In this document: one piece after another, positions 1 through 61,559 of the stretch
Layout of the letters: each line of letters begins with the position of its first letter
How positions within the stretch are numbered: position 1 is the first letter of the stretch
From: Mobula hypostoma
Lineage: Eukaryota
Direction of reading: 5' to 3'
DNA: 64,000 bases
Assembly (NCBI RefSeq): GCF_963921235.1
Contig: NC_086107.1
Span: 106,208,001 to 106,272,000, forward strand
Made by a program: the position numbers and the translations under genes
Notes under the pieces: generated by a model
The model's database searches: none
Seen by the model: only the letters and a program-made list of their open reading frames with translations
What the model was told of the DNA's origin: nothing

Positions 1-3000
1 AGTGAGGTGTGGGTCTGACAGTGAGTTGTGTGTCTGACAGTGGATTGTGTGTCTGACAGTGAGGTGTGTGTCTGACAGAGGATTGTGTGTCTGACAGTGA
101 GGTGTGTGTCTGACAGTGAGTTTTGTGTCTGACAGTGAGGTGTGTGTCTGACAGAGGATTGTGTGTCTGACAGTGAGGTGTGTGTCTGACATTGGGTTGT
201 GTGTCTGACAGTGAGGTGTGTGTCTGACAGTGGATTGTGTGTCTGACAGTGGGGTGTGTGTCTGACAGTGGATTGTGTGTCTGACAGTGGGGTGTGTGCC
301 TGACAGTGGATTGTGTGTCTGACATTGGATTGTGTGTCTGACAGTGAGGTGTGTGTCTGACAGTGGATTGTGTGTCTGACAGTGGGCTGTGTGTCTGACA
401 GTGGGGTGTGTGTCTGACATTGGATTGTGTGTCTGACAGTGAGGTGTGTGTCTGACAGTGAGGTGTGTGTCTGACAGTGGATTGTGTGTCTGACAGTGAG
501 GTGTGTGTCTGACAGTGGATTGTGTGTCTGACAGTGAGGTGTGTGTGTGACAGAGGATTGTGTGTCTGACAGTGAGGTGTGTGTCTGACAGTGAGTTGTG
601 TGTCTGACAGTGAGGTGTGTGTCTGACAGTGAGTTGTGTGTCTGACAGTGAGGTGTGTGTCTGACAGAGGATTGTGTGTCTGACAGTGAGGTGTGTGTCT
701 GACAGTGAGTTGTGTGTCTGACAGTGAGGTGTGTGTCTGACAGAGGATTGTGTGTCTGACAGTGGGGTGTGTGTCTGACAGTGAGGTGTGTGTCTGACAG
801 TGGATTGTGTGTCTGACAGTGAGTTGTGTGTCTGACAGTGGATTGTGTGTCTGACAGTGAGGTGTGTGTCTGACAGTGGGGTGTGTGTCTGACAGTGGAT
901 TGTGTGTCTGACAGTGAGGTGTGTGTCTGACAGTGGATTGTGTGTCTGACAGTGAGGTGTGTGTCTGACAGTGGATTGTGTGTCTGACAGTGGGGTGTGT
1001 GTCTGACAGTGGATTGTGTGTCTGACAGTGAGGTGTGTGTCTGACAGTGGATTGTGTGTCTGACAGTGAGGTGTGTGTCTGACAGTGGATTGTGTGTCTG
1101 ACAGTGGGGTGTGTGTCTGACAGTGAGTTGTGTGTCTGACAGTGGATTGTGTGTCTGACAGTGGGGTGTGTGTCTGACAGTGAGGTGTGTGTCTGACATT
1201 GGATTGTGTGTCTGACAGTGAGGTGTGTGTCTGACAGTGAGTTGTGTGTCTGACAGTGGATTGTGTGTCTGACAGTGGGGTGTGTGTCTGACAGTGAGGT
1301 GTGTGTCTGACAGTGGATTGTGTGTCTGACAGTGAGGTGTGTGTCTGACAGTGGATTGTGTGTCTGACAGTGAGTTGTGTGTCTGACAGTGGATTGTGTG
1401 TCTGACAGTGGGGTGTGTGTCTGACAGTGAGGTGTGTGTCTGACAGTGGGGTGTGTGTCTGACAGTGAGGTGTGTGTCTGACAGTGGATTGTGTGTCTGA
1501 CAGTGAGGTGTGTGTCTGACAGTGGATTGTGTGTCTGACAGTGAGGTGTGTGTCTGACAGTGAGGTGTGTGTCTGACAGTGGATTGTGTGTCTGACAGTG
1601 AGGTGTGTGTCTGACAGTGGATTGTGTGTCTGACAGTGAGGTGTGTGTCTGACAGTGGATTGTGTGTCTGACAGTGAGGTGTGTGTCTGACAGTGGATTG
1701 TGTGTCTGACAGTGGATTGTGTGTCTGACAGTGAGGTGTGTGTCTGACAGTGGATTGTGTGTCTGACAGTGGGGTGTGTGTCTGACAGTGGATTGTGTGT
1801 CTGACAGTGGATTGTGTGTCTGACAGTGAGGTGTGTGTCTGACAGTGGATTGTGTGTCTGACAGTGCGTTGTGTGTCTGACAGTGGATTGTGTGTCTGAC
1901 AGTGAGGTGTGTGTCTGACAGTGAGGTGTGTGTCTGACAGTGGATTGTGTGTCTGACAGTGAGGTGTGTGTCTGACAGTGAGGTGTGTGTCTGACAGTGG
2001 ATTGTGTGTCTGACAGTGGGGTGTGTGTCTGACAGTGAGGTGTGTGTCTGACAGTGGATTGTGTGTCTGACAGTGGGGTGTGTGTCTGACAGTGGATTGT
2101 GTGTCTGACAGTGAGGTGTGTGTCTGACAGTGGATTGTGTGTCTGACAGTGAGGTGTGTGTCTGACAGTGGATTGTGTGTCTGACAGTGAGGTGTGTGTC
2201 TGACAGTGGATTGTGTGTCTGACAGTGAGGTGTGTGTCTGACAGTGGATTGTGTGTCTGACAGTGAGGTGTGTGTCTGACAGTGAGTTGTGTGTCTGACA
2301 GTGAGGTGTGTGTCTGACAGAGGATTGTGTGTCTGACAGTGAGGTGTGTGTCTGACAGTGAGGTGTGTGTCTGACAGTGGATTGTGTGTCTGACAGTGAG
2401 TTGTGTGTCTGACAGTGGATTGTGTGTCTGACAGTGAGGTGTGTGTCTGACAGTGAGGTGTGTGTCTGACACTGGATTGTGTGTCTGACAGTGGGGTGTG
2501 TGTCTGACAGTGAGGTGTGTGTCTGACAGTGAGGTGTGTGTCTGACAGTGGATTGTGTGTCTGACAGTGAGGTGTGTGTCTGACAGTGGATTGTGTGTCT
2601 GACAGTGAGGTGTGTGTCTGACAGTGAGGTGTGTGTCTGACAGTGGATTGTGTGTCTGACAGTGAGGTGTGTGTCTGACAGTGGATTGTGTGTCTGACAG
2701 TGGATTGTGTGTCTGACAGTGAGTTGTGTGTCTGACAGTGGATTGTGTGTCTGACAGTGAGGTGTGTGTCTGACAGTGGATTGTGTGTCTGACAGTGAGG
2801 TGTGTGTCTGACAGTGGATTGTGTGTCTGACAGTGAGGTGTGTGTCTGACAGTGGATTGTGTGTCTGACAGTGGATTGTGTGTCTGACAGTGAGGTGTGT
2901 GTCTGACAGTGGATTGTGTGTCTGACAGTGAGGTGTGTGTCTGACAGTGGGTTGTGTGTCTGACAGTGAGGTGTGTGTCTGACAGTGGATTGTGTGTCTG

Positions 3001-6000
3001 ACAGTGAGGTGTGTGTCTGACAGTGGATTGTGTGTCTGACAGTGGGGTGTGTGTCTGACAGTGAGGTGTGTGTCTGACAGTGGATTGTGTGTCTGACAGT
3101 GAGTTGTGTGTCTGACAGTGGATTGTGTGTCTGACAGTGAGGTGTGTGTCTGACAGTGAGGTGTGTGTCTGACAGTGGATTGTGTGTCTGACAGTGAGGA
3201 TTGTGTGTCTGACAGTGGATTGTGTGTCTGACAGTGGATTGTGTGTCTGACAGTGAGGTGTGTGTCTGACAGTGGATTGTGTGTCTGACAGTGAGGTGTG
3301 TGTCTGACAGTGGATTGTGTGTCTGACAGTGAGGTGTGTGTCTGACAGTGGATTGTGTGTCTGACAGTGGATTGTGTGTCTGACAGTGAGGTGTGTGTCT
3401 GACAGTGGATTGTGTGTCTGACAGTGAGGTGTGTGTCTGACAGTGAGGTGTGTGTCTGACAGTGGGGTGTGTGTCTGACAGTGGATTGTGTGTCTGACAG
3501 TGAGGTGTGTGTCTGACAGTGGATTGTGTGTCTGACAGTGAGGTGTGTGTCTGACAGTGGATTGTGTGTCTGACAGTGGATTGTGTGTCTGACAGTGAGG
3601 TGTGTGTCTGACAGTGGATTGTGTGTCTGACAGTGAGGTGTGTGTCTGACAGTGGATTGTGTGTCTGACAGTGGGGTGTGTGTCTGACAGTGGATTGTGT
3701 GTCTGACAGTGAGGTGTGTGTCTGACAGTGAGGTGTGTGTCTGACAGTGGATTGTGTGTCTGACAGTGAGGTGTGTGTCTGACAGTGGATTGTGTGTCTG
3801 ACAGTGAGGTGTGTGTCTGACAGAGGATTGTGTGTCTGACAGTGAGGTGTGTGTCTGACAGAGGATTGTGTGTCTGACAGTGAGGTGTGTGTCTGACAGT
3901 GAGTTGTGTGTCTGACAGTGAGGTGTGTGTCTGACAGTGGATTGTGTGTCTGACAGTGAGGTGTGTGTCTGACAGTGGATTGTGTGTCTGACAGTGAGGT
4001 GTGTGTCTGACAGTGGATTGTGTGTCTGACAGTGAGGTGTGTGTCTGACAGTGGATTGTGTGTCTGACAGTGGTGTGTGCTGACAGTGAGTTGTGTGTCT
4101 GACAGTGGATTGTGTGTCTGACAGTGGGTGTGTGTCTACAGTGGTGTGTGTCTGACAGTGAGGTGTGTGTCTGACAGTGGATTGTGTGTCTGACAGTGAG
4201 GTGTGTGTCTGACAGAGGATTGTGTGTCTGACAGTGAGGTGTGTGTCTGACAGTGAGGTGTGTGTCTGACAGTGGATTGTGTGTCTGACAGTGAGGTGTG
4301 TGTCTGACAGTGGATTGTGTGTCTGACAGTGAGGTGTGTGTCTGACAGTGGATTGTGTGTCTGACAGTGAGGTGTGTGTCTGACAGTGGATTGTGTGTCT
4401 GACAGTGAGGTGTGTGTCTGACAGTGGGGTGTGTGTCTGACAGTGGATTGTGTGTCTGACAGTGAGGTGTGTGTCTGACAGTGAGGTGTGTGTCTGACAG
4501 TGGATTGTGTGTCTGACAGTGGGGTGTGTGTCTGACAGTGGATTGTGTGTCTGACAGTGGATTGTGTGTCTGACAGTGAGGTGTGTGTCTGACAGTGGAT
4601 TGTGTGTCTGACAGTGAGGTGTGTGTCTGACAGTGGATTGTGTGTCTGACAGTGAGGTGTGTGTCTGACAGAGGATTGTGTGTCTGACAGTGAGGTGTGT
4701 GTCTGACAGTGAGTTGTGTGTCTGACAGTGAGGTGTGTGTCTGACAGAGGATTGTGTGTCTGACAGTGAGGTGTGTGTCTGACATTGGGTTGTGTGTCTG
4801 ACAGTGAGGTGTGTGTCTGACAGTGGATTGTGTGTCTGACAGTGAGGTGTGTGTCTGACAGTGGATTGTGTGTCTGACAGTGGGGTGTGTGTCTGACAGT
4901 GAGGTGTGTGTCTGACAGTGGATTGTGTGTCTGACAGTGAGGTGTGTGTCTGACAGTGGATTGTGTGTCTGACAGTGAGGTGTGTGTCTGACAGTGGATT
5001 GTGTGTCTGACAGTGAGGTGTGTGTCTGACAGTGGGGTGTGTGTCTGACAGTGGATTGTGTGTCTGACAGTGAGGTGTGTGTCTGACAGTGGATTGTGTG
5101 TCTGACAGTGGGGTGTGTGTCTGACAGTGAGGTGTGTGTCTGACAGTGGATTGTGTGTCTGACAGTGAGGTGTGTGTCTGACAGTGGATTGTGTGTCTGA
5201 CAGTGAGGTGTGTGTCTGACAGTGGATTGTGTGTCTGACAGTGAGGTGTGTGTCTGACAGTGGATTGTGTGTCTGACAGTGGGGTGTGTGTCTGACAGTG
5301 GATTGTGTGTCTGACAGTGAGGTGTGTGTCTGACAGTGGATTGTGTGTCTGACAGTAAGGTGTGTGTCTGACAGTCGATTGTGTGTCACAGTGAGATGTG
5401 TGTCTGACAGTGAGGTGTGTGTCTGACAGTGGATTGTGTGTCTGACAGTGAGTTGTGTGTCTGACAGTGGATTGTGTGTCTGACAGTGAGGTGTGTGTCT
5501 GACAGTGGATTGTGTGTCTGACAGTGAGGTGTGTGTCTGACAGTGAGGTGTGTGTCTGACAGTGGATTGTGTGTCTGACAGTGAGGTGTGTGTCTGACAG
5601 TGGATTGTGTGTCTGACAGTGAGGTGTGTGTCTGACAGTGGATTGTGTGTCTGACAGTGAGGTGTGTGTCTGACAGTGGATTGTGTGTCTGACAGTGAGG
5701 TGTGTGTCTGACAGTGGATTGTGTGTCTGACAGTGGGGTGTGTGTCTGACAGTGAGGTGTGTGTCTGACAGTGGATTGTGTGTCTGACAGTGGGGTGTGT
5801 GTCTGACAGTGGATTGTGTGTCTGACATTGGATTGTGTGTCTGACAGTGAGGTGTGTGTCTGACAGAGGATTGTGTGTCTGACAGTGAGGTGTGTGTCTG
5901 ACAGTGAGTTTTGTGTCTGACAGTGAGGTGTGTGTCTGACAGAGGATTGTGTGTCTGACAGTGAGGTGTGTGTCTGACATTGGGTTGTGTGTCTGACAGT

Positions 6001-9000
6001 GAGGTGTGTGTCTGACAGTGGATTGTGTGTCTGACAGTGGGGTGTGTGTCTGACAGTGGATTGTGTGTCTGACAGTGGGGTGTGTGCCTGACAGTGGATT
6101 GTGTGTCTGACATTGGATTGTGTGTCTGACAGTGAGGTGTGTGTCTGACAGTGGATTGTGTGTCTGACAGTGGGCTGTGTGTCTGACAGTGGGGTGTGTG
6201 TCTGACATTGAATTCTGTGTCTGACAGTGAGGTGTGGGTCTGACAGTGAGGTGTGTGTCTGACAGTGGATTGTGTGTCTGACAGTGAGGTGTGTGTCTGA
6301 CAGAGGATTGTGTGTCTGACAGTGAGGTGTGTGTCTGACAGTGGATTGTGTGTCTGACAGTGAGGTGTGTGTCTGACAGTGGATTGTGTGTCTGACAGTG
6401 AGGTGTGTGTCTGACAGTGGATTGTGTGTCTGACAGTGGGGTGTGTGTCTGACAGTGAGGTGTGTGTCTGACAGTGGATTGTGTGTCTGACAGTGAGTTG
6501 TGTGTCTGACAGTGGATTGTGTGTCTGACAGTGAGGTGTGTGTCTGACAGTGGGGTGTGTGTCTGACATTGGATTGTGTGTCTGACAGTGAGGTGTGTGT
6601 CTGACAGTGAGGTGTGTGTCTGACAGTGGATAGTCTGTCTGACAGTGGGGTGTGTGTCTGACAGCGGATTGTGTGTCTGACAGTGCGGTGTGTGTCTGAC
6701 AGTGGATTGTGTGTCTGACAGTAGGGTGTCTGTCTGACAGTGAGTTGTGTGTCTGACAGTGGATTGTGTGTCTGACAGTGAGGTGTGTGTCTGACATTGG
6801 ATTGTGTGTCTGACAGTGAGGTGTGTGTCTGACAGTGGATTGTGTGTCTGACAGTGGGGTGTGTGTCTGACAGTGAGTTGTGTGTCTGACAGTGGATTGT
6901 GTGTCTGACAGTGGGGTGTGTGTCTGACAGTGAGGTGTGTGTCTGACAGTGGATTGTGTGTCTGACAGTGAGGTGTGTGTCTGACAGTGAGTTGTGTGTC
7001 TGACAGTGGATTGTGTGTCTGACAGTGGGGTGTGTGTCTGACAGTGAGGTGTGTGTCTGACAGTGGATTGTGTGTCTGACAGTGAGGTGTGTGTCTGACA
7101 GTGGATTGTGTGTCTGACAGTGAGGTGTGTGTCTGACAGTGGATTGTGTGTCTGACAGTGGGGTGTGTGTCTGACAGTGAGGTGTGTGTCTGACAGTGGG
7201 GTGTGTGTCTGACAGTGATGTGTGTGTCTGACAGTGGATTGTGTGTCTGACAGTGAGTTGTGTGTCTGACAGTGGATTGTGTGTCTGACAGTGAGGTGTG
7301 TGTCTGACAGTGGGGTGTGTGTCTGACATTGGATTGTATGTCTGACAGTGGGGTGTGTGTCTGACAGTGGATTGTGTGTCTGACAGTGAGGTGTGTGTCT
7401 GACAGTGGATTGTGTGTCTGACAGTGGGGTGTGTGTCTGACAGTGAGTTGTGTGTCTGACAGTGGATTGTGTGTCTGACAGTGGGGTGTGTGTCTGACAG
7501 TGAGGTGTGTGTCTGACATTGGATTGTGTGTCTGACAGTGAGGTGTGTGTCTGACAGTGAGTTGTGTGTCTGACAGTGGATTGTGTGTCTGACAGTGGGG
7601 TGTGTGTCTGACAGTGAGGTGTGTGTCTGACAGTGGATTGTGTGTCTGACAGTGGGGTGTGTGTCTGACAGTGGATTGTGTGTCTGACAGTGAGTTGTGT
7701 GTCTGACAGTGGATTGTGTGTCTGACAGTGAGTTGTGTGTCTGACAGTGGATTGTGTGTCTGACAGTGAGGTGTGTGTCTGACAGAGGATTGTGTGTCTG
7801 ACAGTGAGGTGTGTGTCTGACAGAGGATTGTGTGTCTGACAGTGAGGTGTGTGTCTGACAGTGAGTTGTGTGTCTGACAGTGAGGTGTGTGTCTGACAGA
7901 GGATTGTGTGTCTGACAGTGGGGTGTGTGTCTGACAGTGAGGTGTGTGTCTGACAGTGGATTGTGTGTCTGACAGTGAGTTGTGTGTCTGACAGTGGATT
8001 GTGTGTCTGACAGTGAGGTGTGTGTCTGACGGTGGGGTGTGTGTCTGACATTGGATTGTGTGTCTGACAGTGAGGTGTGTGTCTGACAGTGAGGTGTATG
8101 TCTGACAGTGGGGTGTGTGTCTGACAGTGGATTGTGTGTCTGACAGTGCGGTGTGTGTCTGACAGTGGATTGTGTGTCTGACAGTAGGGTGTCTGTCTGA
8201 CAGTGAGTTGTGTGTCTGACAGTGGATTGTGTGTCTGACAGTGAGGTGTGTGTCTGACAGTGGATTGTGTGTCTGACAGTGGGGTGTGTGTCTGACAGTG
8301 AGTTGTGTGTCTGACAGTGGATTGTGTGTCTGACAGTGGGGTGTGTGTCTGACAGTGAGTTGTGTGTCTGACAGTGGATTGTGTGTCTGACAGTGAGGTG
8401 TGTGTTTGACATTGGATTGTGTGTCTGACAGTGAGTTGTGTGTCTGACAGTGGATTGTGTGTCTGACAGTGGGGTGTGTGTCTGACAGTGAGTTGTGTGT
8501 CTGACAGTGGATTGTGTGTCTGACAGTGAGGTGTGTGTCTGACAGTGGATTGTTTGTCTGACAGTGAGTTGTGTGTCTTACAGTGAGGTGTGTGTCTGAC
8601 AGTGGATTGTGTGTCTGACAGTGAGTTGTGTGTCTGACAGTGGATTGTGTGTCTGACAGTGAGGTGTGTGTCTGACATTGGGTTGTGTGTCTGACAGTGA
8701 GGTGTGTGTCTGACAGTGGATTGTGTGTCTGACAGTGGGGTGTGTGTCTGACAGTGAGGTGTGTGTCTGACAGTGGGGTGTGTGTCTGACAGTGAGGTGT
8801 GTGTCTGACAGTGGATTGTGTGTCTGACAGTGAGTTGTGTGTCTGACAGTGGATTGTGTGTCTGACAGTGGGGTGTGTGTCTGACAGAGGATTGTGTGTC
8901 TGACAGTGAGGTGTGTGTCTGACAGTGGATTGTGTGTCTGACAGTGAGGTGTGTGTCTGACAGTGGATTGTGTGTCTGACAGTGAGGTGTGTGTCTGACA

Positions 9001-9340
9001 GTGGGGTGTGTGTCTGACAGTGAGGTGTGTGTCTGACAGTGGATTGTGTGTCTGACAGTGAGTTGTGTGTCTGACAGTGGATTGTGTGTCTGACAGTGGG
9101 GTGTGTGTCTGACAGTGGGGTGTGTGTCTGACAGTGGATTGTGTGTCTGACAGTGGGGTGTGTGTCTGACAGTGAGGTGTGTGTCTGACAGTGGGGTGTG
9201 TGTCTGACAGTGGATTGTGTGTCTGACAGTGGGGTGTTTGTCTGACAGTAAGGTGTGTGTCTGACAGTGGATTGTGTGTCTGACAGTGGATTGTGTGTCT
9301 GACAGTGGGGTGTGTGTCTGACAGTGAGTTGTGTGTGACA
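1..9340. repeat. 19-bp tandem satellite/minisatellite, about 490 units, open at the left window edge
   Basis: Constant 13-mer TGTGTGTCTGACA plus a variable 6-mer (GTGAGG, GTGGAT, GTGGGG, GTGAGT, rarer GAGGAT, TTGGAT). The array ends abruptly near 9340. Confidence 0.98.
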
Positions 9341-34864: not shown

Positions 34865-35703
34865 CTAAACATAGATAAAAACATAGAAAATAGGTGCAGG
34901 AGTAGGCCATTCGGCCCTTCGAGCCTGCCACCGCCATTCAGTATGATCATGGCTGATCATCCAACTCAGAACTCTGTACCAGCCTTCCCCCCATACCCCC
35001 GATCCCTTTAGCCACAAGGGCGACATCTAACTCCCTCTTAAATATAGCCAGTGAACTGGCCTCAACTGTTTCCTGTGGCAGAGAATTCCACAGATTCACC
35101 ACTCTCTGTGTGAAGAAGTTTTTCCTAATCTTGGTCCTAAAAGGCTTCCCCTTTATCCTCAAACTGTGACCCCTCGTTCTGGACTTCCCCAACATCGGGA
35201 ACCTTCCTGCATCTAGGCTGTCCAATCCCTTTAGGATTTTATACGTTTCAATAAGATCCTCCCTCAATCTTCTAAATTCCAACCAGTATAAGCCTAGTTG
35301 ATCCAGTCTTTCATCATATGAAAGTCCTGCCATCCCAGGAATCAATCTGGTGAACCTTCTTTGTACTCCCTCTATGGCAAGGATGTCTTTCCTCAGATTA
35401 GGGGACCAAAACTGCACACAATACTCCAGGTGTGGTCTCACCAAGGCCTTGTACAACTGCAGTAGTACCTCCCTGCTCCTGTACCCGAATCCTCTTGCTA
35501 TGAGTGCCAGCATACCATTCGCCTTTTTCACCGCCTGCTGTACCTGCATGCCCACTTTCAATGACAGGTGTATAATGACACCCAGGTCTCGTTGCACCTC
35601 CCCTTTTCCTAATCGGCCACCATTCAGATAATAATCTGTTTTCCTGTCCTTGCCACCAAAGTGGATAACCTTACATTTATTCACATTAAATTGCATCTGT
35701 CAT
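34865..35703 (-). mobile_element. Relatively young CR1 LINE 3' fragment
   Basis: 249-aa ORF MQFNVNKCKVIHFG...LYKALVRPHLEYCVQFWSP...WNSLP. Its 3' end is nearly identical to 62890-63203. Confidence 0.95.
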
Positions 35704-41754: not shown

Positions 41755-42008
41755 TCACACGCGTGTTTGTGTGTCTGTCTGTCTGTCCGTCTGTGCGCGT
41801 ATCGGCGTGCGTTTCTGTCTGTGCTTACTGCGTACGCATGTGTATGTGAGAGTATTTATGTGTTAATGTGTGAGAACGTGAGAGTGTGCGTTTACGTGTG
41901 AGATATTGGACATGGTGTGAGTGTTTCTGTGTGTATAAAGAAGAGAGTGCATGTTTGAGCATGCGTGTGTCCGTGTGTATGTGTGTGTCCGTGTCCGTGT
42001 GTATGTGG
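41755..42008. repeat. Degenerate (GT)n tract just inside NPTXR intron 1
   Basis: Alternating purine-pyrimidine sequence adjacent to the splice donor. Confidence 0.8.
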
Positions 42009-42029
42009 CTACACGGTAACACCACTCAC

Positions 42030-42665
42030 CTCCAGATTTTCAATGCTGTCCTTCAGGGAGTGGATGGTCTGCTCCAGATCTAACACTGTCCAGTCAGATT
42101 CCTCGGTCCCATCTTCCAAACTGTTTCTCCCAAGGTCCCATGCGTATTCCTCGGGATTATTTTGAAAGAAGCTCAGTTCCTGGCCATTCTCACATTGGCT
42201 GAGTTTGCTGGTCAGTTCCCTGATGGTCTGCTGGTCGCTGGCGATCTGTTTCTCCTGCTGGATGACCATCTGGCGGAGGTGGTCAGCCGTACTCCTCAGC
42301 AGCAGCAGATCCTCCCGGATCGAAGGGGAAGGGCAATCCTGAGCCAAAGGCAGACAGAGGAAGCGACTGGCAGTGCCAATAAATGAATCCGAACCATATC
42401 CAAGCCTAGAGCTCACAGAAGCTTTGCCAGCACCAGGATCAATGGCAGTGCCTTGGCTTGGGGTAGGTGCGGGAATGCCGGCTCTCCCTGTATCAGCACC
42501 GCGGGCAGCTCCAGCGCCGCTCTGGGTTGCAAGCAATGCTCCGGCTTCATTTTCAGCACCAGGGACAGATCCCGGAGAACCAGGGGCGATGCTTGCAATG
42601 ATGCAGATCACTGCACCTAGAAATGCAAGCATCCCTGCCCCTAGCAGGATGGTTAGATACTTCAG
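42030..42665 (-). CDS. NPTXR: Neuronal pentraxin receptor, coding exon 1 (212 codons, CUG start, phase-0 donor)
   Basis: (CTG)KYLTILLGAGMLAFLGAVICIIAS...SRFLCLPLAQDCP...REDLLLLRSTADHLRQ..QQEKQIASDQQTIRELTSKLSQCE...LEQTIHSLKDSIENLE matches the mammalian NPTXR N-terminus (MKFLAVLLAAGMLAFLGAVICIIAS...SRFLCTPL...DQDTIRELTGKLGRCE). Donor GAG/GTGAGT at 42030/42029. Confidence 0.95.
42492..42512 (+). promoter_or_regulatory. RE1/NRSE (REST site), exonic
   Basis: ATCAGCACC-GC-GGGCAG-CTCC versus consensus TTCAGCACCnnGGACAGCGCC. Confidence 0.7.
42552..42572 (+). promoter_or_regulatory. RE1/NRSE (REST site), exonic
   Basis: TTCAGCACC-AG-GGACAG-ATCC: both half-site cores are perfect, with the canonical 2-bp spacer. 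Confidence 0.85.
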
Positions 42666-42795
42666 GGTGACGGAGTTTGTGCAACAAGAACCCGAGAAAG
42701 AATCAAGTTAAAATTAAAAACAGAAATCCGCAGCTTCGGAGACCGAGGTGGGATCCTGCCGGATAGCAAGTGCAGTGGCAATCCCTTACAATCAT

Positions 42796-42824
42796 CTGTC
42801 AATCACAGCCCCTCGAAGACGTCA
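42796..42824 (-). promoter_or_regulatory. Candidate NPTXR proximal motifs: PBX-MEIS/PREP decamer and a CRE-like site
   Basis: TGATTGACAG at 42805-42796 and TGACGTCT at 42824-42817, within a CpG-rich repeat-free region. Confidence 0.5.
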
Positions 42825-44174
42825 TTGATTCCCGGAGGAGCGACCCACATTCTTAAAAGGGAATTCTTTTCGGTTAACAATAATCCTTAAACGGGCAACG
42901 CATCTCGGGTCCAATTGTCTGGGGAAAAAAATGCGTGAGTGTATAGCATTTCGGCAACATGTTTCAAAATGAAATTTGCATTGGAAACAGGCTCCAGGAG
43001 GAATTGGAGGGAAACGGCCTGCGGCTGAAAGGGTGGTTAGGAAGACGAGGGGCGGTAGGAAGCTCGTTAGGAGCATAAACACCCTGCTCGCAGTTGTCAT
43101 GCATAATAAATCTGACACCGTGCTGAAAACTCTATAATTCTGTGAATGATAACCTCTCTGTTTCTGTTGTTTACTGAAAAAAAACCAAAAGGTCCGCGAC
43201 TTCTGTCTGCTGGGAAATCACGAACAGGACCGTGTACTATTTATCTCCAAATAATTATTTGAATTTCCACAATACACCACCTCAGGGATATTTTGTAACA
43301 ACATACAGTGTGTTATTTTATTTCTAAAACGGAACATGAACTCCCCAAACATTATTCCATTCATTACAGATTTAATATTTATGATGGAAGTGTTTTGCTG
43401 TGGGATTTAATTTTCTTTCAGAAAAGGCTCATGTAGCATAGAGAAACAGAGAATCCTGGAGAACATTAGCAAGGCAGGCAGGAACAAGAAGAGTGAATCT
43501 AGATTAGTGTTTCATGTCAGCCCGCACAGATCAAAGGTCATTGACCGGAAACTTCTGGCCTCATTCTCTCTCCACAGGAGCCGCCTGGCTTGATGAGTGT
43601 CACGGCCGTTTTCTGCTCCATTTCCAAAGTCCAATACTTGTAGCATGGAGATTTTGATCGGGAAATAGACAAGAGGTTATGGTAAAACTCAGCTCAGTTC
43701 CCCATCTGAGGTGAATAGAGCGAGGGATAGCACTCAAAATGAGTGGAATAAGGAGACACCTATGTCCCAAGCAAAGCCAGCTACCACTGGGAGGAATTAA
43801 ATTAAAAAAAACCCGAATACCCATGGTGGAAGACAGTGTAGTGAAGAGGTTTCTAGGGATTCTTTTAAGGCAGAAAATACAGGGGGTTTCGAGAGGCTGT
43901 TCAACTCTTTTCCCTCATTGGCGGACAAATCTTCCAGTCGGAATGTGGAGATCCATCCTGCTTTCAGGTGGGGCGCTATAGTTTGCCTGTTACTTCCTGA
44001 GACAAGCATGGGAGAGTACTGCTCTACTTAATGTGTGTCCTTATAAGCACTAGAGTGCACATGAGTGTGTGTGTTGATTAATCAGTGCAATGAATGGATT
44101 AGCATGCCTACCAGCTGCAATGCCTGTGGATGAGTTTGCCGCCTAAGCATGAGTGTGAGCAATGCGTATGATTA

Positions 44175-44480
44175 TGGACACAAGAGATCCTGCAGATGCT
44201 GGAAATCTGGAGCAATGGGCACAAAACGCTGGTGGAGCTCCGCAGCCAGACTGCATCTATGGAAAGGAATAAACAGTCAATGTTTTGGGCCAAGACCTTT
44301 CATCAGGACTGGAAAGAAAGGGGGAGGTGCCCAAATATGCAAGCATAGGAGGACAAGCTAGAAGGTGAAAGGCAAAGCAAGATGGGTGGGGGAGGGGTGA
44401 AGTGTGAAGCTGGGAGGTGATAAGTGGAAAATTCAAAGGGCTGGAGAAGAAGGAATCTGATAGGAGAGGAGAGAGTGAGA
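44175..44480 (-). mobile_element. Penelope-like 3' fragment
   Basis: Same terminal sequence as the other copies. Hammerhead at about 44274-44311 with GAAA decayed to AAAA. Confidence 0.75.
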
Positions 44481-52254: not shown

Positions 52255-53180
52255 ACTAGAACATAAAACATTACTGCACAGGAACCGGCCATTCGGCCCA
52301 CAATGTTGTGCTGAACCAGCTAAAAGGCAAATCAAAAACACCCAAACACTAATCCCTCCTGTATACACAATGTCCCTATCCCTCCATCTTCCTCATGACC
52401 ATGTGCCTACCTAAATGTCTTTTAAAAGCCTCTAATGTATTTACCTCTACCACCATACCAACCAGCACATTTCAGGCATCCACCACTCTCAGATTAAAAA
52501 ACTTACCTCTCACATTCCCTTTGAACCTACCCCCTCTCACCTTCAATGCATGCCCTCTTGTATTAGATATGTCAACACTGGAAAACAAATACTCCCTGTC
52601 TACTCTGTCTCTGCCTCTCATAATCTTATAAACCTCTATCATATCTCCCCTCAGCCTCTGACGCTCCAGAGAAAGCTGCCCAAATTTAACCAGCCTCTCA
52701 TGATAGCACATGCCCTCTAAACCAGGCAGCATCTTGGTAAACCTCTTCTGCACCCTCTCCAAAACCTCAACATCCTTCCTATAGCAGGGCAAGCAGAACT
52801 GTATGCATACTCCAGGTGTGGCCTAACCGAAGTTTTATAAAGTTGCAACATAAAGTTCCACTCAAAGCCTCGACTAGTAAAAGCAAGCATTCCATAAGCC
52901 TTCTTAACCATCCTATCAACCCGTGTGGCCACTTTCAAGGAGCTATGAACTTGGATCTCAAGATCTCTCTGCTGAACAACACTGTTAAGGATCTTGCCCT
53001 TAACAGTGTACTGTCTCCTTGCATCTGCCCTACCAAGGTGCAGTACCTCACATTTATCTGGGTTAAACTCCATCTGCCACTTCTCTGCCCATATCTGCAA
53101 CTGATCTATATTGCGCAGTATTCTTTGCCCGTCTCCTACATTATCCACAACTCCACCAATCTTGGTATCACCTGCAAACT
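52255..53180 (-). mobile_element. CR1 LINE fragment
   Basis: WAEKWQMEFNPDKCEVLHLG...LYKTSVRPHLEY and LERVQKRFTKMLPGL. Confidence 0.93.
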
Positions 53181-53569
53181 TAGTTTTTTCCTTTTTTGCT
53201 TAGCCACAGTTCTGCCCCCAACCAGAGTTGACAAAACATCTAACCTATCCCAAACTTCAAAGTTCAAAGTAAATTTATTATCAACATACAACAACAACAA
53301 CATATACGTCACCATATATTACCTTGAGATTCATGTTCTTGCAGGCATTCAGAGTAGACAAAGAAATACAGGAGAGTCATAAAAAACTAGTCACAAAGAC
53401 TCTCCAAGTGGCATACTGGGGAAAGCTCTGCAGATATGCAGGGCAGGTGGGAAATAAAATAACACCTGCGAACCAAATCAGAAACAAATCCAGGCATGCC
53501 TGTACCCAGATTGGGCAGCTGACACCAAAACCTGGCTGTAGGTATAAAAAGCTATTCCCTTTCACTTTA

Positions 53570-55453: not shown

Positions 55454-57665
55454 AGAAACATATAGAACATAGAATAGTACAGCACAGTACAGGCCCTTCG
55501 GCCCACAATGTTGTGCCGACCCTCAGACCCTGCCTCCCATATAACCCCCCACCTTAAATTCCTCCATATACCTGTCTAGTAGTCTCTTAAACTTCACTAG
55601 TGTATCTGCCTCCACCACTGACTCAGGCAGTGCATTCCACGCACCAAACACTCTCTGAGTAAAAAACCTTCCTCTAATATCCCCCTTGAACTTCCCACCC
55701 CTTACCTTAAAGCCATGTCCTCTTGTATTGAGCAGTGGTGCCCTGGGGAAGAGGTGCTGGCTATCCACTCTATCTATTCCTCTTATTATCTTGTACACCT
55801 CTATCATGTCTCCTCTCATCCTCCTTCTCTCCAGAGAGTAAAGCCCTAGCTCCCTTAATCTCTGATCATAATCCATACTCTCTAAACCAGGCAGCACCCT
55901 GGTAAATCTCCTCTGTACCTTTTCCAATGCTTCCACATCCTTCCTATAGTGAAGCGACCAGAACTGGACACAGTACTCCAAGTGTGGCCTAACCAGAGTT
56001 TTATAGAGCTGCATCATTACATCACAACTCTTAAACTCCATCCCTTGACTTATGAAAGCAAACACCCCATAAGCTTTCTTAACTACCCTATCTACCTGTG
56101 AGGCAACTTTCAGGGATCTGTGGACACGTACCCCAAGATCCCTCTGCTCCTCCACACTACCAAGTATCCTGCCATTTACTTTGTACTCTGCCTTGGAGTT
56201 TGTCCTTCCAAAGTGTACCACCTCACACTTCTCTGCGTTGAACTCCATCTGCCACTTCTCAGCCCACTTCTGCATCCTATCAATGTCTCTCTGCAATCTT
56301 TGACAATCCTCTACACTATCTACAACACCACCAACCTTTGTGTCATCTGCAAACTTGCCAACCCACCCTTCTACCCGCACATCCAGGTCGTTAATAAAAA
56401 TCACGAAAAGTAGAGGTCCCAGAACAGATCCTTGTGGGACACCACTAGTCACAATCCTCCAATCTGAATGTAGTCCCTCCACCACGACCCTCTGCTTTCT
56501 GCAGGCAAGCCAATTCTGAATCCACCTGGCCAAACTTCCCTGGATCCCATGCCTTCTGACTTTCTAAATAAGCGTACCGTGTGGTACCTTGTCAAATGCC
56601 TTACTAAAATCCATGTAGATCACATCCACTGCACTACCCTCATCTATATGCCTGGTCACTTCCTCAAAGAACTCTATCAGGCTTGTTAGACACGATCTGC
56701 CCTTCACAAAGCCACGTTGACTGTCCCTGATCAGACCATGATTCTCTAAATGCCCATAGATCCTATCTCTAAGAATCTTTTCCAACAGCTTTCCCACCAC
56801 AGACATAAGGCTCACTGGCCTTATAATTACCCAGACTATCCCTACTATCTTTTTTGAACAAGGGGACAACATTCGCCTCCCTCCAATCCTCTGGTACCAT
56901 TCCCATGGACAATGAGGACATAAAGATCCTAGCCAACGGCTCAGCAACCTCTTCCTTCGCCTCATGGAGCAGCCTGGGGAATATTCCATCAGGCCCCAGA
57001 GACTTATCCGTCCTAATGTATCTTAACAACTCCAACACCTCCTCTCCTTTAATATCAACATGATCCAGAACATCAACCTCACTCATATTGTCCTCACCAT
57101 CATCAAGTTCCCTCTCATAGGTGAATACCAAAGAGAAGTATTCATTGAAGACCTCGCTCACTTCCACTGCCTCCAGGCACATCTTACCCTTATCTCTAAT
57201 CGGTCCTATTTTCACTCCTGTAATCCTTTTGTTCTTCACATAATTGAAGAATGCCTTGGGGTTTTCCTTTACCCTACTCGCCAAGGCCTTCTCATGCCCC
57301 CTTCCTGCTCTCCTCAGCCCCTTCTTGCTCTTCTCAGCCCCTTCTTAAGCTCCTTTCTTGCTTCCCTATATTCCTCAATAGACTCATCTGACCCTTGCTT
57401 CCTATACCTCAAGTATGCTGCCTTCTTCCACCTGACTAGATTCTCCACCTCACTCGTCACCCATGGTTCCTTCACCCTACCGTTCTTTATCTTCCTCACC
57501 GGGACAAATTTATCCCTAATATCCCGCAAGAGATCTCTAAACATCGACCATATGTCCATAGTACATTTCCCTGCAAAAACATCATCCCAATTCACACCCG
57601 CAAGTTCTAGCCTTATAGGCTCATAATTTGCCTTTCCCCAATTAAAATTTCCCTGTCCTCTCTGA
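55454..57665 (-). mobile_element. CR1 LINE, 2.2-kb ORF2 fragment with reverse transcriptase, frameshifted and 5'-truncated
   Basis: KSLGPDGIFPR, QRGFVKGRSCLTSL, YMDFSKAFDKVPH, GVPQGSVLGPLLF and FADD motifs across four ORFs. CATAGAA tail. Confidence 0.97.
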
Positions 57666-58661: not shown

Positions 58662-61559
58662 ATGGCGCCTTTCTCCGGAGCAGAGCTGCTCGGGAGCTTT
58701 CTGGCTCTTTTAGCTTGGAGGGAAATGCCAGCGGTGAGTTGTCTGGCTTTCAGAAACTGTGTAAGTTTATATCTTCGGACGAACTCTCTAAACTGCGTAA
58801 ACCGGGGTATCCAAAAGCTGGCCCACGCTGTTTCGGACATCCCCTCCAACACCACGGTTCTGAACATTTCCGGCAACATGATCAGCGATTTGCCTAAGAG
58901 AGGACTGGAAAATTTGGTGTTTTTGGAGTATCTAAGGCTTGACCGCAACAACCTGAGCAGAATCGCACCGCAAGCCTTTTGGAAACTCCATTCCCTGCGG
59001 GAACTCAATCTGTCCCACAACTTTCTGGAGTCTCTGCAGCAAGACGCCTTCATATCCCTGTCCAATCTCACCAGCCTCAGCCTACAGCACAACAAGTTGG
59101 GGCATCTCTCCGGAGCCGCCGTCTTCCCCCTGAAAAGACTCCAAATTCTGGATATCTCCTTCAATGATTTCAGGAACGCCTCGTCTGTAATTGCAGCTCT
59201 GAGACGAGTTCATGCTTTGAGAACATTGTATCTTCAGAGCTGCAGAATAAGATATTTGGAAATTTCGACCAGTTTCCCCCCGCAGCTGAGCAGTTTACTT
59301 CTCGCCGACAACCCCCTCTCCAGATTCTGGGCTCCCGCCGATTTTTTTGCCGGCATTAACTACCTGAACATGTCCAACTGCAGCTTGTCGCGAGCCGAGA
59401 ACCTCACCTCCATCAATTTATCCGGTGTGCACTCCCTGAGCATCGGGGCCAACCCGCTGGAACCGGCCGAGGTGATCGAAACTGTGCGGAACATAAATGC
59501 GCCCCTGAGAAACATCACCCTCAGCTACTTGAAGCTGAAAAACACCGACACGCTGAGAGTTCTGTGCGGGATCTTTCAGAAGCGGGGGATTCGGTCAGTC
59601 AACCTGGAGGGCAATCGTTTCCGGGAAGTGAAGGGGGCCTTCAGCCGGTGCAATTCAATTTTATTTCTGGACATGTCCCACAACAGGATTAAAACGCCGC
59701 ACATGTTTACCTGTGGAGGCGCTCCCAACGATCTACAAACTTTAATACTGGATCATAATTTAATTCGAGATGTCTCTCTGTGCGCCGTGGGCCCCGACGG
59801 AAGGCAATGTAGCTCGACCACCCCTTGCCTGGGGAAACTGCGTTACCTCTCGTTAAGGTACAACCGCATCTCGGCCATTGGGTCTCATGCATTCCGACAG
59901 GTTCCCGACCTGGAGACTCTCACTTTGGCGTTGAACGAAATTAATTTCATCAACACCTCTGCCTTTGCTGGTCTAAGTAAACTGAAGTTTCTATCCCTCA
60001 CTAACAACGCAATCGGAGAAATCTTTCCCAAGACCTACATGCATCTTGGGAACCTGGAACACTTAAAGCTACGAAATAACAGGATTCCCATTATCTACAA
60101 TCGATATTACTCCAACCTTTCCAAGCTAATCACGCTGGATTTGGGCGGAAATCACATTGAGAAGATTGAAGACGGAGGTTTTGAAGGACTCCGATCTTTG
60201 TTAAGGCTCTACTTGGATGGGAACTGGTTGTCGGATCTTTCGAAGGATATGTTTAAAGATTTGCGGTCGTTGCAAGTGTTAGATTTGGCCCAAAACAAGT
60301 TGACCTTCGCGAAAGCGCCCGACCACTCGTCCCCGTTCGATGCGCTGCGCAATCTCCGCATGCTGAAGTTGCAAAGACAGTATACTTCCGAGAGCATGTC
60401 GCTACCTGGAAACCTGTTTGATGGCCTCCAGAGGCTCCAGATTCTGGACATCTCCAACAACAACTTCATGACTCTGGACACACTGCCCTTTCATCAGCTC
60501 GGCCGACTGCAAGTCTTGCGGATGAACGACATTCACTTGGACTTCGGAACCATGCACAACAAGACTTTCGCCAACCTGGTCAACCTCCGGCTGCTGAGCC
60601 TGGAGAGAGCCGGCCTGGAGTCCATCCGACAGGCCCTCTTCGAAAACCTGGCCAGCCTCACCACCCTGCTGCTCGGGAGCAATGGTATCCGCGTCGTCGG
60701 AAAGAACGATATCCTTCAACTGGGCAACCTCAGCTACCTGGACCTCCAGAAGAACCGGTTAGGCTGCGTGTGCGAGAACCTGTGGTTTCTGTGGTGGGCG
60801 GTGAAAAGTAAGGTAGAGGTGCCTCTGTTCTACAACTACTCGTGTGAGGGCCAAGGAGGGAAAAAACCCTTGGCACAGTTCGACAGATTGATTTGCAACG
60901 ACGGTTTTGAGGCGTTTTGCCTCAGTGCGCTGACGATCTTCGCCTTTGTGGTGACGACTCTGTTGTACCACAAAGGGAAGTGGAACTTTTATTACAGTTA
61001 CTACCTGCTCCGTGCGTGGATTCGCGAGAAACAGTTGCGGAGGTCGCATACTCGGGGCCACCAGTACGACGCCTTCGTGTCCTACAACTCCAACGACGAG
61101 GACTGGGTGTTTGACCAGCTGATGCCGCACTTGGAGACTGAGGGTCCTCCGTTTCACCGACTTTGCTTCCACCACAGGGACTTTGCGGTCGGCAAACCCA
61201 TCGTGGAGAACATCGTCGACGCCATATACAACAGCAAGAAGACGCTTTGCGTCATCTCCAAGAGTTACCTGCAAAGCGAGTGGTGCTCGATGGAGATGCA
61301 GGTAGCCCTGTACAGGCTCTTCGATGAATACAGCGATGTCCTTATCCTGGTCTTTCTCGATGAGATCCCTGGCCACGTGTGGTCTCCTTACCACCACCTG
61401 CGGAAGCTGCTGTGGAAGAAGACTTACATCAGTTGGCCCACTGATGACGCAGGCCAGAGGCTGTTTTGGGCCAAGTTGCGGGACGCTCTCAAAGCAGACT
61501 GCTCAACTTCTAGGAAACCGGCGTATTCGCTCATCCAGCACAAGAGCTTACTGTACTAA
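58662..61559 (+). CDS. Toll-like receptor, TLR11/13/21 family (TLR21-like), single coding exon, 965 aa
   Basis: Signal peptide; LRRNT AFRNC...C..R.....AVSDIP; more than 20 LxxLxLxxN repeats; LRRCT LGCVCENLWF..C..C; TM FEAFCLSALTIFAFVVTTLLY; TIR with YDAFVSY, LCFHHRDF, SEWC and FW boxes. No exact symbol given because TLR21 cannot be separated from close paralogues by eye. Confidence 0.97.
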   Translation: MAPFSGAELLGSFLALLAWREMPAVSCLAFRNCVSLYLRTNSLNCVNRGIQKLAHAVSDIPSNTTVLNISGNMISDLPKRGLENLVFLEYLRLDRNNLSRIAPQAFWKLHSLRELNLSHNFLESLQQDAFISLSNLTSLSLQHNKLGHLSGAAVFPLKRLQILDISFNDFRNASSVIAALRRVHALRTLYLQSCRIRYLEISTSFPPQLSSLLLADNPLSRFWAPADFFAGINYLNMSNCSLSRAENLTSINLSGVHSLSIGANPLEPAEVIETVRNINAPLRNITLSYLKLKNTDTLRVLCGIFQKRGIRSVNLEGNRFREVKGAFSRCNSILFLDMSHNRIKTPHMFTCGGAPNDLQTLILDHNLIRDVSLCAVGPDGRQCSSTTPCLGKLRYLSLRYNRISAIGSHAFRQVPDLETLTLALNEINFINTSAFAGLSKLKFLSLTNNAIGEIFPKTYMHLGNLEHLKLRNNRIPIIYNRYYSNLSKLITLDLGGNHIEKIEDGGFEGLRSLLRLYLDGNWLSDLSKDMFKDLRSLQVLDLAQNKLTFAKAPDHSSPFDALRNLRMLKLQRQYTSESMSLPGNLFDGLQRLQILDISNNNFMTLDTLPFHQLGRLQVLRMNDIHLDFGTMHNKTFANLVNLRLLSLERAGLESIRQALFENLASLTTLLLGSNGIRVVGKNDILQLGNLSYLDLQKNRLGCVCENLWFLWWAVKSKVEVPLFYNYSCEGQGGKKPLAQFDRLICNDGFEAFCLSALTIFAFVVTTLLYHKGKWNFYYSYYLLRAWIREKQLRRSHTRGHQYDAFVSYNSNDEDWVFDQLMPHLETEGPPFHRLCFHHRDFAVGKPIVENIVDAIYNSKKTLCVISKSYLQSEWCSMEMQVALYRLFDEYSDVLILVFLDEIPGHVWSPYHHLRKLLWKKTYISWPTDDAGQRLFWAKLRDALKADCSTSRKPAYSLIQHKSLLY

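Follow-up and report, generated by a model that had tools for sequence, protein, structure and literature searches.

Locus and gene identity

We analyzed a 64,000-nt stretch of the Mobula hypostoma genome (GCF_963921235.1, contig NC_086107.1, positions 106,208,001-106,272,000, forward strand), the whole of which is referred to here as the window and supplies all coordinates given below. The minus strand of the window carries the first coding exon of a neuronal pentraxin gene, 212 codons when counted from an in-frame CTG (42665-42030), as delimited by tblastn against P0001, a RefSeq-derived protein that begins at a downstream ATG, not at the CTG; from that ATG on, exon and protein are identical over 201 of 201 residues. 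The GT splice donor of intron 1 follows directly (42029-42028, minus strand), and contigs from four of four sequencing runs depart from the genome there. The window encodes the N-terminal hydrophobic anchor; the pentaxin domain (PF00354) lies at residues 293-472 of P0001. No further NPTXR exons were found by tblastn in the 42 kb below exon 1 (window 1-42029), and the pentraxin exons fall outside the window; either intron 1 is longer than 42 kb or there is a break in the assembly.

P0001 is labelled 'neuronal pentraxin-2-like [Mobula hypostoma]'. In a 28-row tree from a quick IQ-TREE search, in which NPTX1 was not identified by name, 15 NPTXR-type rows (five chondrichthyan, ten bony-vertebrate, P0001 included) lie on one side of a branch with SH-aLRT 100, separate from seven NPTX2 rows, one of them from a skate (P0133). 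A quick 82-row tree with three distant long-branch outgroups did not settle the monophyly of NPTXR; the NPTX2-containing group still excluded the query. By these phylogenies, the ray gene is the NPTXR orthologue, and the label on P0001, a misnomer. The expected neighbours of NPTXR are CBX6 and DNAL4; no chromodomain match was found within the window. Two shark models (P0079 and P0080), however, fuse a CBX chromodomain to exon 2 of NPTXR, which is indirect support for a CBX6 neighbourhood. The same join to exon 2, after IILNLK, recurs in two amniote-like models (P0272 and P0287), so that such fusions may represent NPCD-like read-through, possibly old; such chimeric transcripts are described as very rare among ESTs, and as possible prediction errors, in the text of PMC2542381.

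The window contains several other features. A single-exon Toll-like receptor ORF of 965 amino acids, with leucine-rich repeats and a TIR domain, lies in a CpG-rich stretch 16 kb upstream of NPTXR (58662-61559, plus strand); of the solved structures, TLR13 gives the longest single match to its ectodomain. A strongly strand-skewed tandem satellite of about 9.3 kb (1-9336), built of units of about 19 nt (periods 38 and 95), contains long spurious ORFs. Reverse-transcriptase-like ORF fragments (34947-35699, 52717-53199 and 55523-57344, minus strand) are, presumably, remnants of CR1-type LINEs. Short interspersed repeats (44178-44325 and 43528-43607) show very high contig depth in four of four runs. 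A CRE-like TGACGTC at 42824-42818 was rejected as a chance-level match (2 found against 4.2 expected).

Candidate start codons of exon 1

The initial annotation had proposed that NPTXR of this cartilaginous fish starts at a CTG 11 codons above the first ATG, in the context GTCACC with A at -3, and that a TAA 15 codons further up leaves no room for an in-frame upstream ATG in the exon. All of these positions hold on the minus strand, to which the coordinates in this section refer. The CTG (42665-42663), the putative start of a long, membrane-anchored form of the protein (NPR), is directly preceded by the Kozak-like GTCACC (42671-42666; G at -6, A at -3) and has A at +4; the in-frame TAA occupies 42710-42708, and no ATG is present in any frame at 42794-42633. 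The downstream ATG (42632-42630, context GCAGGG-ATG-C) is the candidate start of a short NPR and the start chosen by automated annotation. Sequence comparison defines the codons between the two as an N-terminal extension, (L/M)KYLTILLGAG (42665-42633). Two more in-frame near-cognates with A at -3, absent from the initial annotation, lie within it (ATC 42650 and CTG 42647), but conservation across lineages begins at CTG 42665, not at either of these. Above the leader, an out-of-frame ORF of 30 codons (42795-42703; ATG 42795, stop 42705) would act as a uORF only where transcripts begin above 42795, and the furthest contig end falls 10 nt short of its ATG.

The context of the CTG is itself constrained. 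All 62 records from outside the ray-finned fish in which the site is read through as Leu have Thr (an ACN codon) just before it, and this invariant Thr fixes the A at -3. The four codons above the CTG (42677-42666) read NSVT in the ray and three sharks, so the context is conserved to about -12 in elasmobranchs, past the usual Kozak positions.

Transcripts across the start region

Contigs from four runs of four studies (X1-X4) were aligned to 42008-44400; the runs were taken to be RNA by guess, and, since the contigs of all four depart from the genome at the donor, they were handled as spliced transcripts. The X1 contig (2,522 nt) matches 42780-42029 with no differences, spanning the TAA, the CTG and the ATG, and then departs at the donor. 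X3 reaches 42785 without gaps, with 41 differences (29 of them listed), and X2 reaches 42697 with 30 differences; among the 29 listed for X2, which included differences as near as 27-33 nt to a contig end, none falls on the CTG or on -3. X4 starts at 42614, below the CTG, and is uninformative for it. Thus, at the DNA level, the CTG is seen in the window and in X1 (identical) and is kept, by inference from 29 of the 30 differences, in X2 (4.5% diverged); the other elasmobranch lineages were compared as protein models, in which a Leu at the site stands for any CTN or TTR codon. The stretch 42808-43447, which lies outside contig cover, was not counted as evidence.

X1, X2 and X3 cross the CTG colinearly without a joint, and none of the joints listed lies inside exon 1. 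Therefore, the leader (42785-42666, minus strand, about 115-120 nt) is colinear and AUG-free in the main transcript, with the proviso that contigs lose rare splice forms and give no map of transcription starts. The matching ends of X1 (42780) and X3 (42785), from two studies, are a weak hint that transcription starts near 42780-42785.

These contigs bear directly on the outcome that the initial annotation had set against its own proposal, namely, the splicing-in of an upstream exon that carries an ATG. Such an exon might join, for instance, at AAG|TAT (42660/42659), or an in-frame ATG further up might be used, and in either case no non-AUG start would be needed. The white-shark model P0003 joins an unrelated N-terminus precisely at AAG|TAT, matching only from 42659, so that AAG (42662-42660, minus strand), below a pyrimidine-rich stretch, is its apparent 3' splice site; the Stegostoma (P0004) and Pristiophorus (P0008) models are extended to upstream Mets. 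However, the N-termini of these three models are mutually unrelated, a junction at AAG would cost the protein its conserved Leu-Lys, translation from further up would end at the in-frame TAA in the ray, and no such exon is seen in X1-X3, which are unspliced across the site. We consider the use of an upstream ATG in the ray very improbable.

Conservation of the extension

The extension aligns without gaps to that of mammals, as the initial annotation had stated: ray LKYLTILLGAG and mammalian LKFLAVLLAAG (P0057) are identical at 7 of 11 positions, with a BLOSUM62 score of 37. Among 65,165 background 11-mers (stop-free, from six frames of the remaining window, with the satellite and the gene region left out), none scored 37 or more, and the best reached 28. 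The match is beyond chance. Identity over the extension amounts to 10-11 of 11 residues with three sharks, 7 of 11 with tetrapods and 6 of 11 with salmonid nptxra-type records, and it drops to 1-3 per 11-14 residues upstream of the site Leu in tetrapod records from five lineages.

The comparison across gnathostomes that the initial annotation called for was made on protein models, in 137 rows, 22 of them without the anchor motif (NPTX2-type rows, chromodomain fusions and one odd model) and seven from ray-finned fish, counted apart. Among nine chondrichthyan exon-1 models, three, all from sharks, read through the site as Thr-Leu, five begin at the second Met (that encoded by the ATG), and one, from the white shark, has an odd N-terminus; none has Met at the CUG site. 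The second Met is present in all nine, five of which begin there and so have it by construction. Among sarcopterygian or unnamed rows, 99 carry the anchor motif: 59 show Thr-Leu read-through, 30 begin at the second Met, seven begin with Met at the site, one begins with Leu there and two differ; the second Met is kept in 99 of 99. Altogether, where models read through the site, Leu follows Thr in 3 of 3 sharks and in 59 of the 61 rows that are sarcopterygian or unnamed; the two exceptions look mis-modelled. None of these read-through records has an internal Met at the CUG site. No lamprey or hagfish NPTXR was identified among the representative sequences examined.

As had been anticipated, automated annotation truncates the protein, with P0001 and five of nine chondrichthyan exon-1 models beginning at the ATG. 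Such models could be taken to mean that the AUG alone is used in the ray, the CTG and its 11 codons being vestigial and NPR secreted or weakly anchored. The +4 base, A rather than G, points the same way, as does the in vitro efficiency of the frog and zebrafish CUG, far below that of mammals in the preprint text of Lee et al. (bioRxiv 10.1101/2024.02.16.580719). An untranslated stretch of 33 nt, however, would not be expected to hold 7 of 11 residues, along with conservative changes, since the split from bony vertebrates, nor would identity be expected to fall just above the site Leu. Annotation pipelines, moreover, default to ATG. Use of the AUG alone is thus very unlikely.

Predicted hairpin and N-termini of the two forms

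Downstream of the CUG, folding predicts a stem-loop (42650-42569, minus strand) that begins 15-20 nt past the C of the CUG. The AUG lies inside its core helix (42633-42624 with 42597-42588), with a predicted pairing probability of about 1.0. The first 100 nt from the CUG fold at -45.2 kcal/mol (dinucleotide-shuffle z -4.42; 0 of 200 shuffles as stable). With two nulls of 500 synonymous recodings each, this energy was reached once and not at all, respectively. The hairpin is the strongest among 23 exon-1 windows; the leader shows no unusual structure (z -0.93). In relatives, synonymous changes break the outer helix, and the 9-bp core and a 7-bp inner helix persist, in part because the amino acids impose this. 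The three synonymous changes listed for X2 all break hairpin pairs, none of them compensated, and bring the energy to -38.4 kcal/mol; two changes common to X3 and X4 bring it to -43.2 kcal/mol. According to these folding models, the extra stability of the ray hairpin would not be conserved in relatives.

The putative hydrophobic signal anchor (42659-42585, minus strand) comprises 25 uncharged residues in the long form and 16 in the short form, against 24 and 15, respectively, in a bovine record (P0040). In the ray short form, the hydrophobic core is followed by a proline-rich region, and a simple (-3,-1) rule allows cleavage at just two sites, after residue 13 or residue 14; in the bovine record it allows five. 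Secretion of the ray short form is, accordingly, less sure.

These features raise the question of whether the CUG might be used and yet yield essentially one functional form, either because the long form dominates, the hairpin boosting the CUG and burying the AUG, or because the short form, with its proline-rich c-region, remains uncleaved and unsecreted. The full pairing of the AUG and the small number of cleavage candidates fit this alternative, and the ray hairpin at -45.2 kcal/mol exceeds in stability those that Lee et al. report in the preprint text for frog (-38.0) and zebrafish (-39.1), although folding settings may differ. Nevertheless, the human and mouse hairpins in the same text are more stable still (-58.3 and -55.5 kcal/mol for the mammals), and both forms are made there; the ray hairpin is weaker in relatives; and the second Met is present in nine of nine chondrichthyan models, even if five begin there by construction. 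We regard a single functional form as unlikely.

Proposed dual initiation

Orthology, the conserved extension and an unspliced, AUG-free transcript leader fit CUG initiation, and, on this comparative evidence, exon 1 of ray NPTXR is probably translated from both the CUG and the AUG of one mRNA, as in mammals. Scanning ribosomes would traverse the AUG-free leader of about 120 nt, and part of them would initiate at the CUG, with its A at -3, aided by the stem-loop 15-20 nt downstream, to give long NPR, held by a type II signal anchor of 25 residues. The remaining ribosomes would leak to the AUG 11 codons on and produce short NPR, the 16-residue hydrophobic head of which is probably a cleavable signal peptide, the product being a secreted pentraxin. 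We infer initiation at both ray codons, the topology and the secretion by analogy with the system described in the preprint text of Lee et al.

Teleost paralogues and the proposed age of the switch

Ray-finned fish were examined in 123 rows, made up of the best 120 of 470 matches and three earlier rows, with redundant isoforms included and one row shifted by hand for an insertion; the nptxrb clade and the contrast rows include P0071-P0078, P0130 and P0138-P0253. In the nptxrb clade (100 rows, FastTree support 100), every row has Met at the CUG site. In at least eight extended models this Met is internal, hence a true ATG. In 97 of the 100 rows the second Met is gone, its place taken by T, S, A, L, V, I or F. 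Outside this clade, among nptxra-type and early-branching ray-finned rows, three read Leu at the site, 19 begin at the second Met and one was not parsed; the second Met is kept in 22 of the 22 parsed rows, those beginning there keeping it by construction.

Loss of the second Met where the first site is Met, against its retention elsewhere, is expected if the second Met is a start codon. Judged by eye, the nptxrb clade suggests one change at site 1 and several separate losses at site 2, and this pattern supports the view that a weak site 1 goes with retention of the second Met as a start codon. By analogy, evolution would have produced in the nptxrb clade an equivalent of the AUG knock-in mouse.

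Five NPTX2 records, four of which begin MLA(F/L)LAG, have a start Met that aligns with the second Met of NPTXR. This alignment, in which NPTX1 is absent and short hydrophobic ends align easily, suggests that NPTXR gained the CUG extension in front of an older AUG that began the signal peptide. By parsimony, the last common ancestor of jawed vertebrates, about 450 million years ago, would already have had both the CUG and the AUG. Taken jointly, these observations lead to a broader reading, to which we assign an even chance: the switch is as old as NPTXR, having arisen before the split of sharks and bony vertebrates when 11 CUG-initiated codons came to precede an NPTX2-like signal peptide, with the AUG kept; the hairpin at the AUG is ancestral and did not originate in mammals; and, after the genome duplication of teleosts, nptxrb of one clade exchanged its CUG for AUG, after which the second Met was lost several times and the protein became membrane-only, whereas nptxra keeps both starts. 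Dual initiation in the ray would date a tested switch between anchored and secreted synaptic organisers to the common ancestor of jawed vertebrates. Of more use is a comparative lead: teleost nptxra and nptxrb may separate the two NPR forms genetically, so that the function of each could be tested.

Comparison with known systems

The mechanism proposed here for the ray is already published. According to Lee et al. (bioRxiv 10.1101/2024.02.16.580719), the first to note the CUG of NPTXR were Dodds et al. 1997; the preprint itself describes, in its text, leaky CUG/AUG initiation of mouse NPR that yields anchored and secreted forms: starting at the AUG turns the signal anchor into a signal peptide, and the product is secreted. 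Both forms were obtained in vitro from human, mouse, frog and zebrafish reporters, a stem-loop 10-12 nt past the CUG raises CUG use in mammals, and both codons are called conserved across vertebrates. Hence, the mammalian CUG start on which the initial annotation relied is confirmed, and its leaky switch between the two codons stands as a mechanism, having been demonstrated in mouse, but the novelty that it attached to this switch was overrated. The mechanism being known and extended to fish, a specialist would expect the ray result, which amounts to a modest phylogenetic extension together with an annotation fix. Elasmobranch models of NPTXR are truncated or carry spurious N-termini and are mostly labelled NPTX2-like.

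In the text of the preprint, the figure 1A alignment of which could include cartilaginous fish, no shark or ray is named, and lamprey, teleost and coelacanth yielded no matches. A literature search from which subscription papers were absent turned up nothing that deals with where NPTXR starts in cartilaginous fish or that mentions both 'nptxra' and 'nptxrb'.

Several relatives and analogues differ from ray NPTXR in instructive ways. NPTX2, a secreted neuronal pentraxin, has the same coiled-coil and pentraxin layout but forms a separate clade with its own skate member (P0133), and the five aligned NPTX2 records lack the 11-residue extension. NPCD (neuronal pentraxin with chromo domain; Chen and Bixby 2005, as cited in the texts of PMC2542381 and PMC8866268) uses the pentraxin exons of NPTXR in the layout of P0079 and P0080 but skips exon 1 and, hence, both starts. 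In C1QL1-4, as presented in the text of the Lee et al. preprint, a near-cognate upstream start likewise switches a synaptic organiser between secreted and membrane forms; there, however, the codon is AUU rather than CUG, the protein family is unrelated, and the AUG form is the annotated one. The closest counterpart is mammalian NPR as described in the same preprint text. The gene is orthologous, the CUG and the AUG lie 11 codons apart with A at -3, use of the AUG would likewise shorten the hydrophobic anchor, and a stem-loop is predicted below the CUG. The ray hairpin begins 15-20 nt past the CUG, compared to 10-12 nt in human and mouse, and is predicted to fold at -45.2 kcal/mol, compared to -55 to -58 kcal/mol. 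Lee et al. frame the stable structure as mammalian, whereas the ray is a cartilaginous fish, with a proline-rich c-region.
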